This document shows, one piece after another, positions 1-3,000 of a DNA stretch of 42,050 bases. Numbering within the stretch: the first letter of the stretch is position 1; the number at the start of each line of letters is the position of its first letter. Origin of the DNA: a virus (taxonomy: Duplodnaviria; Heunggongvirae; Uroviricota; Caudoviricetes); the IMG/VR virus record IMGVR_UViG_2718218402_000004, positions 1-42,050 of that record; one strand, given 5' to 3'. Made by a program: the position numbers.

Positions 1-3000
1 TTATATCTTACTTAATACCACACTAATAAGATCTTGCTTTCCGCCATGGTAAGATTGCATTATTTGACTTTCACTCCATAAACGGTCAGAAACATTATAA
101 GATGATATATCTATTGGATTAAATTCATTCCTTACACGGTCATATAAGACATTTGTCTCTGTTGTATCGATAAAAAGAACTCCTTTTTGCTCCAGCCTGT
201 CAAACATATCGTAAATAGCCTGCTCAGCCTGTACTGGCAATGACGAAATATTAAAAAGCGACTCCCCGCTTATTTTATTCATTCTAATACCAAGAACATC
301 ATCATTGTCGCCATATATTTTTTCTGCACTCCCGGCGCCATAATATTTGTTGAAGCAACGAACTTCGTTTGTCACCTCTTCATGGCTTTGAGATGTTGTA
401 AACATCTTCAGAACTTTTGTTGCATCCTCCGCATCTTCATACACTACAGCGTTCCCCCCCTTGCCAATAACATTACCCAGCACAGGCAACCTGTTATAAT
501 CCACACTAGGCAACTCTGGCAGTGCATAATCAACAGGAGGTAAATCAGGTCTGTTCGAATGAACACTTCCTCTTTCCATAGCCCTATTCACTGGCGATGA
601 ATTCAGCATCACCTCAATTTTCCTGCTAATCTCTCCCTTAGGCCATCCCAGCCTGTGCAACAGATTAGTAAAGCAACCACTATGACTTTCTCTTGTAACG
701 CAAAACTTATTATCAGTGACAACAACACGATATGTTCTGTTGCCCACCTTTACTTGCGCCCCATTATCAGAGTGAACTGCAGCATCCCTTACAGAGGATA
801 GAACACGATTATCAGGCGAAGTCAGGTTTCTGGTTAAAGAACTCCATGAACATCCCAAATTTATAGAAGAGGGCGATAACATACATTTCAACCTTCAAAA
901 TAGACCTATCCAAACATTCCTAACAAACATCCCCCGGACATTGCAACACAAAACCGGAGCCGGACTCCGGTTTTGTGAAACTGTCGGGTTACTTCATCCC
1001 GCCAATATTTTCCCACTTCCCGTCAGCACGCAGAATTTGCAGCGGTCTTACCACGCACTGTATCTGCTTTTTATCCGCATCCAGTATCACCACCTGCGTG
1101 ATTACCCTGGCCTGCTCCGGAATAATACCATTCTCATCTGACTCCAGGATGTCTGCCGGCCCCAGACGCAGTTGTGCTGTAAGTAACTCCCCGTGTTCAC
1201 GGTCATCATGCTTTCCGTACCCGCACAGACGCTGCATAAGTTTTTTTAGTACGTTCATGTCATTCTCCTGTTCTGCCTGTATCACTGCCCACTTCATCCA
1301 GCCCCTTAACATCCTGCCACGGCCCGTCACCAAACCTGACCTGCAAATGCTGAAACAGCCCCTGAACCTGTGTGGCATCTTTGGGGTCAAGAAAGGTCAG
1401 TCCGGTGATGAGTGCGCCATCTGTATCCGGGAACCAGCCATTGCTGTTTGTCTCAATAATGCTCGCCGGCCCCAGACGAAAACGGATTTGTGTCTCCCCC
1501 GGGTCGCCCTTCGGTCCCTGAGGTCCGGTTGCCCCCACCGGGCCAGCCGCACCTGTTTCTCCTTTCGGTCCCTGTGGGCCTGCCGCACCGGTATCTCCCT
1601 TTGGACCCTGTGGACCTGCATTTCCCGTCAGACCGGTCTCTCCCCGCTCTCCCCTGTCACCTTTCGGCCCCTGCGGGCCTGCCGGACCAGCATCACCTGC
1701 CGGTCCCCGTTCGCCGGTTGCCCCGACAGGGCCGGTGTCACCGCGCTCTCCCTTATCACCCTTCGGCCCCTGAGGACCCGCGGGCCCCTGCTCCCCCTTT
1801 GGCCCGGGAGGTCCCACCACGGTGGGGATTCGGTTTACGGCGTCTTCCGCCGCTATCCTGCTTTGTTCCGCTGACTGTGCGCTTTCTGCTGACTCCCGGG
1901 CTTTTTCTGCTGCGGTCGTTGCATCCCTGGCTGCATTACCGGCTGCACTTTCTGCCGTCTTTTTTGACAACTCGGCATCTGCTGCACTTTGTAATGACTC
2001 ACTGGCTTTTTGAGCGGCCGCAGAGGCCGAGGACGAGGACGCCTCCTCTGACTGCTTTGCAGCGGCTGCACTTTCTGCCGCCTGCCGGGCTGACTCCGAT
2101 GCCTCCCCTGCTGAAGTGTCAGCATTTGCAGCGCTCTTTTCTGCCTGACTGGCTGATATGCCGGCATTCCTCGCGGACGTCTCTGCCTCTCCGGCATTCT
2201 TCTTCGCCTCCTCTGCGTGACGCGCCACCTCTTCCACCATCAGTTCAAAACGGCGCAGTGCCTCCGGCCGGACGTCATCCTCCGACATGGCACCGAGAAA
2301 ATCATTCAGCGTACCGGGTTGAGAATCTTCATACACGGTGATGGTCCCGGCATGTGACGGAGGAAATCCCTCCACCAACAGAATAACGCTGTACTGACCG
2401 TACTCAACGTCCATGCTGTAACGACCGGCTTCATCCGGATTTTCTGAGGCCACCGTGTTCACCACCACCGTGGCGCTGTTACGTCTGGCTTTCAGTTGAA
2501 TGGTGCAGTTCTCTACCGGTTTTCCTGTGCCGTCTTTCAGTACACCTGAAATCTTTACTGCCATATTCACCCCACAAAAAAGCCCGCCTGAACCGGCGGG
2601 CTGTCATAACACTGTGTTACCTGGCTAATCAGAACTTATAACCGACACCCATGATGAAACCGTCAGTGCGCCAGTCGCCACTGCCGGAGCCTTCATAAGC
2701 AATATCAATGGCCACGGATTCGGTCGGGTTAAACTGCACGCCAGCTCCCCACGCCAGAGACGTGTTGCTGTGGCGACCGTCATCACTTCCGGTCAGCACG
2801 TCGTGCGTTTTCCCCTTGTTGTCAGTTACGCGGAGATAATCCCCGGAGAAAGTCGACACACGGCTGTAAGCCACACCCGCCATCGCATACGCGCTGAACC
2901 ATTCATTCACGCGCACAGACGGCCCCGCCATTACGCTGAACCAGCGGTTACGAACGGAATCTTCATGCCAGCGGGTATCGCTGTAATGGGTCAGCTGGCG

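Follow-up and report, generated by a model that had tools for sequence, protein, structure and literature searches.

A free-standing copy of the tail-fibre end domain encoded behind a collagen-like side tail fibre gene in lambdoid prophages

Why would a prophage carry a second copy of a tail-fibre end domain as a separate small gene, directly behind the fibre gene that already contains one? The question is raised by the caudoviricete record IMGVR_UViG_2718218402_000004, analysed here over its whole stretch of 42,050 nucleotides (the window), in which the gene for a collagen-like side tail fibre, stf, is followed on the minus strand by an open reading frame (ORF) of 89 codons, the small ORF. 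A preliminary description of this DNA had pointed out the likeness between the end of Stf and the small ORF, and proposed that the latter is either a stand-alone assembly or chaperone module or a spare alternative fibre tip. The observation is correct and its interpretation is reasonable. Judged by sequence comparison, the small ORF is a genuine gene that is conserved, has been annotated before and encodes a free-standing copy of the fibre end domain. A stand-alone assembly or partner module accounts for the evidence better than a spare tip does, because the two genes are tightly linked (79 of 80 loci), their junction carries signals for coupled translation, the small protein is under purifying selection, and the pair recurs in three tail types and two genera.

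The stf gene (1260-2570, minus strand) encodes 436 residues from a GTG start, whereas the Prokaryotic Genome Annotation Pipeline (PGAP) places the start at the ATG at 2564. The fibre has the architecture of the EPclA type, with an N-terminal PF08400 domain (PfN, residues 3-135), an Ala/Ser/Glu-rich coiled coil, a collagen region (PF01391) and the PF06820 domain Phage_fiber_C, hereafter PfC. The small ORF occupies 989-1258 on the same strand and comprises 89 codons and a TAA stop. BLASTP aligns Stf residues 363-424 with residues 29-88 of the small protein (23 of 62 identities, 37%; 61% positives; E = 6e-12), and Pfam profile searches match both over model positions 1-64 of 64, Stf residues 362-425 with 123 bits and small-protein residues 28-89 with 120.1 bits, against a gathering score of 25 bits. 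The pairwise alignment and the two full-length profile matches thus confirm that the domains are paralogous. PfC is the sole Pfam match of the small ORF at E ≤ 0.1, NCBIfam yields zero matches for it, and tblastn within the window detects no PfC copy besides these two. The fibre copy (PfC-A, Stf residues 362-425; 1296-1487, minus strand) is located near the Stf C-terminus, as had been described, but not at the very end, since a tail of 11 residues extends beyond it. The span originally assigned to the pair, 989-1450, includes the small ORF but cuts off the first 12 residues of the fibre domain, which begins at 1487.

In the small protein, the PfC domain (PfC-B, residues 29-89; 992-1174, minus strand) is preceded by an N-terminal extension of 28 residues (MNVLKKLMQRLCGYGKHDDREHGELLTAQ; 1175-1258, minus strand) that has no counterpart in the fibre copy. 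The extension contains a motif, M-x-I/V-x-KK...C-x-G, that is found again in the Salmonella orthologue, and an RLGPA motif at the domain start is common to both PfC copies. The N-terminal LCGC motif was considered as a lipoprotein signal and rejected; its h-region falls well short of the length needed, and C, H, Y and R all occur at the position of the second Cys.

This gene is no novelty; it is an ordinary, already annotated and extremely common member of a known domain family. Its product matches the PHROG 576 profile from end to end (residues 1-89 on positions 1-89 of 89, E = 1.1e-58). In a RefSeq genome, a 361-base stretch made up of the gene and its immediate flanks has the same DNA sequence (100% identity), and the gene is annotated as an 89-residue coding sequence with the product name 'phage tail fiber C-terminal domain-containing protein'. 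The copy in podovirus phi24B is deposited in GenBank as ADN68460, 'hypothetical tail fiber protein', with a note that cites the Phage_fiber_C superfamily and the RLGP motif. All three entries belong to the same family as the small ORF, and their function labels were assigned by similarity only. A literature search retrieved no functional study of the gene, and sequence and profile searches of PDB chains returned no solved relative.

The junction between the two genes (1256-1269, minus strand) consists of an AGGAG ribosome-binding site (1269-1265), the stf stop codon TGA (1262-1260), a single spacer base C (1259) and the small-ORF ATG (1258-1256), with 6 nucleotides separating AGGAG from the ATG. 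The region reads GGAGAATGACATG, and the string ACAGGAGAATGACATG, which includes TGA-C-ATG, is invariant in 83 of 86 related copies drawn from viral contigs, one phage record, one RefSeq genome and the window. The small-ORF start had been thought to overlap the stf stop; the ATG and the TGA are in fact one base apart, and an overlap exists only for the mechanical ORF that runs from an upstream TTG (1390). This arrangement suggests that the small ORF is probably translationally coupled to stf. Directly past the small-ORF stop is an intrinsic-terminator hairpin (947-977, minus strand; CACAAAACCGGAGUC-CGG-CUCCGGUUUUGUG) with a 14-bp stem and a folding free energy of -33 kcal/mol (z = -5.2; 0 of 200 shuffled sequences equally stable). 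The hairpin is conserved, also in phi24B, and an analogous hairpin is found in the Salmonella loci. Homology among the prophages is lost about 60 nucleotides past the small-ORF stop, where variable effector cargo begins, and the hairpin marks the end of the conserved cassette. An Rfam scan of the region gave nothing meaningful, and no promoter-like site was found there.

A junction of this kind might also let ribosomes pass from stf into the small ORF, by a programmed +1 frameshift or stop bypass at GAA-UGA-C, to give a minor Stf isoform carrying a pair of PfC knobs in tandem. Relative to stf, the small ORF is read in the +1 frame in E. coli as well as in Salmonella, 62 of 65 alleles have no stop codon in the small-ORF frame over the 46 codons upstream of it, and the fibre gene ends in UGA-C, a weak termination context (in the stf frame, ACA GGA GAA UGA C). 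A +1 shift of the prfB type, however, combines a P-site codon that can re-pair, a Shine-Dalgarno-like element 3 nucleotides upstream and a weak stop. Here the P-site GAA cannot re-pair (AAU), the AGGAG overlaps the shift codon, and only the UGA-C fits. Moreover, the upstream open frame is broken in 3 of the 65 alleles, the Salmonella junction has a completely different sequence with stops just upstream in the small-ORF frame, and the strong ribosome-binding site with its ATG explains independent initiation. We regard a frameshifted isoform as highly improbable.

Only one of 58 distinct nucleotide alleles of the small ORF is disrupted, and the product of the gene is under strong, frame-specific purifying selection. 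The ratio of non-synonymous to synonymous polymorphism (pN/pS) is 0.14 overall (pS = 0.13), with 0.057 for the PfC-B domain and 0.34 for the N-terminal extension. Only the annotated frame is low, the five other reading frames giving values of 0.34-2.07. For the last 76 codons of the fibre the ratio is 0.27, so the small protein is the more constrained of the two (0.14 vs 0.27). An antisense ORF of 299 residues (975-1874, plus strand) spans the small ORF and the collagen repeats, and its equivalent in phi24B is vb_24B_37c (2036-2890 of locus L165, minus strand), annotated as a hypothetical protein. Since antisense frames over the small ORF fall within 0.34-2.07, this ORF is probably a by-product of GC-rich collagen codons.

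Selection of this strength largely refutes the idea that the small ORF is a recombination fossil or a DNA-level anchor, in other words the displaced 3' end of an older fibre gene that hitch-hikes, or provides homology for the exchange of effector cargo, and has no function as a protein. The idea draws on the facts that tail-fibre 3' ends are classic recombination hot spots, that prophage homology ends so close to the stop, that many deletion chimeras join other genes to the small ORF, and that partial 3' copies of the small ORF and its terminator flank the nleG cassette in several loci. These partial copies, each with the last ~120 nucleotides of the small ORF, the terminator and a TGTTGTCATGT...GATGTTTGTTA tail, lie ~1 kb downstream, beyond the nleG cassette (L010, 5042-5147; equivalent positions in L008, L020 and L069; L047, 5436-5507). 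Their pattern looks like the footprint of effector cassettes stacked by recombination in the small-ORF/terminator block. They are degraded and riddled with indels, which shows the appearance of an unselected copy, in contrast to the 57 intact alleles of the small ORF itself. The small ORF also comes with a ribosome-binding site, a start codon and an N-terminal extension of its own, conserved in Salmonella too, and the pair has been retained at 29-52% identity across genera. Furthermore, the phi24B gene resides inside the tail operon rather than beside effector cargo, and peptides of its product appear in the phi24B proteomic data considered below. A fossil or anchor is thus very unlikely.

The linkage of the two genes is nearly complete. 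Among 80 viral loci picked by their fibre PfC, the small ORF starts right past the fibre stop in 79, and in the lone exception (L120, 1728-3225) an IS66-family element with TnpA/TnpB-like ORFs is inserted exactly past the TGAC of the junction. In several Stx2c phage records, the matched 1.8-kb region is recovered in two pieces with an insertion of ~1.3 kb inside it. Podovirus phi24B has the whole block of fibre 3' end, TGA-C-ATG, small ORF and hairpin in the middle of its tail operon, away from effectors. Salmonella enterica prophages hold a diverged fibre/small-ORF pair. In one of them (L166), a module with Baseplate_J, DUF2612 and a spike protein precedes a non-collagen fibre of 241 residues that ends in PF06820 (59 bits); the small gene, a stand-alone PfC of 79 residues, begins with an ATG inside the last codons of the fibre behind AGGAGG, and is followed by a hairpin and then by effectors. 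The pair is therefore kept in three tail types (siphoviral lambdoid, podoviral and baseplate-bearing) and two genera, and the two-gene arrangement and the conservation of the small ORF in related prophages, which the preliminary description had named as tests, are both found. Between E. coli and Salmonella, full-length identity of the small proteins is 52%, with the N-terminal M-x-I-x-KK...C-x-G motif shared, and the fibre PfC copies are 40% identical, whereas fibre copy and small protein are only 29-39% identical to each other, with 29-37% when both come from one host. From these values it follows that the duplication is old and that both copies have been kept.

Among 5,426 complete E. coli genomes, 697 carry the small gene (7,253 places in all; median of 12 per genome), and it also occurs in E. 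albertii, C. rodentium and Salmonella. A scan of one genome per species yields only E. albertii and a 725-bp contig (L083, NZ_JPLE01000138.1) labelled Xanthomonas pisi, which encodes the small ORF at 89% protein identity and is most likely E. coli contamination of the Xanthomonas assembly. A profile search of 1.84 billion representative proteins gives 92 matches, mostly fragments of the fibre-PfC and small-PfC subfamilies. Weak multi-repeat matches (P0218, P0236 and others) share a short LDxxGxIP-like motif only and were not counted as homologues. One fibre-like protein from a metagenome assembly, P0230, passes the PF06820 cut-off and has four tandem PfC-like modules upstream of a collagen region. 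Many singleton chimeras (P0011, P0035, P0061, P0067, P0092, P0164, P0174 and P0220) fuse pieces of other phage genes to either PfC, the partners being lom, J, cII-like, tape-measure-like, portal-like and collagen sequences; they are probably deletion products of decaying prophages.

The window itself provides an internal comparison for the position of the small ORF, which had been described as that of tfa. It forms a large imperfect palindrome, in which two tail modules (2215-13834, minus strand, and 23996-35566, plus strand) are 78-100% identical over eight inverted-repeat pairs and face apart, with plus-strand phage head and terminase genes between them. The inverted repeat 2215-2685/35096-35566 covers the shared fibre N-terminus, and the similarity of the modules stops inside stf just past PfN. 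Beyond this point module 1 continues with coiled coil, collagen, PfC and then the small PfC gene. Module 2 (35211-38632, plus strand) continues instead as a lambda-like Stf of 946 residues (PF08400, Phage_fiber_2, Collar), followed by Tfa (38051-38632, plus strand; 193 residues; Caudo_TAP, PF02413, 146 bits), the ATG of which overlaps the stf stop. The module 2 Stf has a very long Ala/Ser/Thr-rich shaft. A Caudo_TAP Tfa thus stands at the same relative place after the shared fibre N-terminus, which bears out the earlier placement, and it follows from the comparison that the small ORF fills the Tfa slot and is swapped together with the distal fibre. Such joint exchange of distal fibre and partner is the classic behaviour of fibre/partner cassettes, as in the fibres of lambda, P2 and Mu.

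Like the Tfa systems (lambda Tfa/Caudo_TAP PF02413, T4 gp38, and the Tfa proteins of Mu and P2), the small ORF is found directly 3' of the fibre gene and travels with the distal fibre. Unlike them, it is homologous to the terminal domain of the fibre itself. We put about even confidence in the reading that the small protein is a fibre-dedicated assembly, registration or capping partner that stands in the Tfa slot and for the most part does not stay in virions. According to this proposal, the small ORF is a late gene, probably with translation coupled to stf, and part of an exchangeable cassette in which the distal fibre, with its shaft and PfC, is joined by the small PfC protein and the terminator. 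The small protein would form a homotrimer of its own, and this trimer could dock on the terminal PfC knob of the fibre or on its C-terminal tail. Once docked, it may help to assemble, register, cap or stabilise the fibre, and would be largely absent from the finished virion or held on it only loosely. Trimerisation we infer by homology to the fibre copy, which does trimerise; likewise, we infer the contact with the fibre and the role in assembly or capping.

What is known of PfC comes from the fibre-borne domain. Ghosh et al. (2012; PMC3368898) describe it as a trimerisation module that nucleates collagen refolding. In their work PfC alone, Trx-PfC, the collagen-PfC fragment Col-PfC and the full EPclA fibre are all trimers, in the case of the EPclA PfC by size-exclusion chromatography with multi-angle laser light scattering, and Col-PfC refolds rapidly and reversibly in vitro after heat denaturation (PMC3368898). 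The study deals with fibre-attached PfC only and leaves a separate downstream PfC gene unmentioned. The fibre end of the Stf described here matches the PfC model over its full length, as the small ORF does, and this Stf shares the EPclA architecture; compared with the fibre-borne domain, the small protein adds the 28-residue extension and is without a shaft.

These experiments at the same time weigh against an assembly partner. The expression strains, BL21(DE3) and JM109(DE3), were not given the small gene, and yet the EPclA fibre and Trx-PfC trimerise and Col-PfC refolds alone (PMC3368898). Strictly speaking, trimerisation therefore does not need the small protein. This is the main point against an obligatory chaperone, and it sets the fibre, which can trimerise without the small protein in vitro and in laboratory E. 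coli strains, apart from the Tfa systems. In addition, the small ORF has no sequence similarity to any Tfa family in Pfam or NCBIfam, and an AlphaFold2 monomer of the PfC domain, built from an 8-sequence alignment, is a poor model (predicted local distance difference test, pLDDT, 60; predicted template-modelling score, pTM, 0.31). The detection of the small protein at low counts in purified virions, discussed next, is also compatible with a structural role.

The supplement of a phi24B cryo-EM preprint (doi 10.64898/2026.04.10.717836) lists, in the portion examined, two peptides specific to the small protein (ADGTWENIGGMK and VITQVVILDADKK; count 3 for either) and two peptides of the fibre C-terminal end with counts of 38 and 47. 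We take the count column, the header of which is not visible, to give peptide-spectrum matches. With 3 against 38-47, the small protein would be sub-stoichiometric to the fibre. The main text of the preprint neither discusses it nor lists it as a virion component. As far as this part of the supplement goes, the small protein is made, and is at most a minor component of stored phi24B virions; the stock had been stored for six months, so that loss of the small protein from the virions is possible. The authors' search database held hypothetical fibre/small-ORF frameshift fusions ('Fusion_6159_FS1/FS2', labelled 'Spike or just gp59?'), which speaks for the frameshifted isoform, but no fibre/small-ORF junction peptide is present in the portion of the supplement examined.

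The peptides in purified phi24B virions bear directly on another explanation, in which the small protein is a structural distal tip. A small PfC trimer would then stack non-covalently on the fibre knob and stay in the virion as the outermost or receptor-contacting module, as a tandem PfC split over two genes. P0230, with its four PfC-like modules in series beside collagen, is a precedent for serial stacking and makes stacking of module on module plausible, although its modules are covalently linked and located upstream of the collagen region, whereas here the second module is encoded apart, as a polypeptide of its own. From the coupled junction one would expect fibre and small protein to be made in about equal numbers, and recombinant EPclB aggregates through one globular domain (PMC3368898), a possible sign of an exposed surface for a cap to cover. 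Nevertheless, the counts are roughly 3 against 38-47 for the fibre-end peptides in the supplement as examined, the protein is unlisted in the phi24B main text, and its extreme conservation (domain pN/pS 0.06) is unlike that of most receptor-binding tips. A retained tip is accordingly unlikely, though clearly less so than the fossil or the frameshifted isoform.

The second role originally proposed, a spare alternative tip, would make the small ORF a silent cassette that replaces the fibre PfC by recombination and so switches specificity. In its favour are the RLGPA motif at both domain starts and two rare chimeras, P0061 (collagen joined to the small-ORF PfC) and P0174 (small-ORF N-terminus joined to the fibre PfC). 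At 37% amino-acid identity, however, the two copies offer little DNA homology for recombination. The chimeras are singletons or located at contig ends, and the P0061 sequence starts at a contig end, which makes it uninformative on natural tip swapping. In 83 of 86 copies neither the orientation nor the junction varies, variants produced by inversion or switching were not seen, there is no adjacent invertase gene to be seen, and the gene has its own ribosome-binding site, start codon and conserved 28-residue extension and is expressed. The small ORF does not show the features of invertible cassettes of the Mu gin/P1 cin type, a comparison made without a dedicated search for short inversion sites. 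We give a spare tip very little credence.

Equally little speaks for a role unrelated to fibre building, such as a soluble knob released at lysis that masks receptors on debris or neighbouring cells, or a function in the lysogen. Some phages do encode receptor-blocking proteins beside their receptor-binding genes, T5 llp being an example, and the low abundance in phi24B virions, as far as the supplement was examined, would be compatible with a released protein. Yet the small protein has no signal peptide or proper lipobox, the region contains no promoter-like site and the gene lies upstream of the late-operon terminator, and no PADLOC defence model matches. Such a role therefore appears most improbable.

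Returning to the fibre-dedicated partner, we propose more tentatively that it represents a class distinct from Tfa and gp38. It would be a free-standing paralogue of the terminal knob that docks homotypically, registers or caps collagen-like and other PfC-ended fibres, and passes with them, as one cassette, among prophages of attaching/effacing E. coli, Citrobacter and Salmonella that have siphoviral, podoviral or baseplate-bearing tails; we think this full version possible but rather less probable than a partner role as such. If a partner that mimics the fibre end domain does exist, it would be a new solution to fibre assembly beside Tfa, gp38 and intramolecular chaperones, and the small gene would need to be transferred together with PfC-ended fibres when these are engineered. 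Collagen-like fibres sit on the lambdoid and Shiga toxin (Stx)-converting prophages through which Shiga toxin and type III effectors spread among enterohaemorrhagic and enteropathogenic E. coli, and few phage genes are repeated more often in the genomes of these strains than the small gene, with its median of 12 copies.

The first 6.4 kb of the window (minus strand) are the distal end of a lambdoid prophage tail operon, with J (3299-6361, minus strand) and lom (2629-3228, minus strand) upstream of stf, and nleH (1-891, minus strand), the gene of a type III effector kinase according to RefSeq annotation, downstream of the small ORF. Between lom and stf, about 10 nucleotides before the stf start, is a terminator-like GC-rich hairpin with a T-run (AGCCCGCCGGTTCAGGCGGGCT TTTTTG; 2581-2602, minus strand). 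Effector cargo is found at both tail ends. Past module 2 there are ORFs of 282 residues (39121-39969, plus strand) and 210 residues (40837-41469, plus strand), the latter NleG-like by eye only, and a further ORF (41640-42050, plus strand) is cut by the window end. The J gene of module 2 is intact (31087-34485, plus strand; 1132 residues), whereas the J of module 1 falls into two ORFs, 6268-6711 and 3299-6361 (minus strand), and the repeat arms I1/I4 are offset by one base near 6368-6373. Together these features suggest a frameshifted J and a defective module 1.

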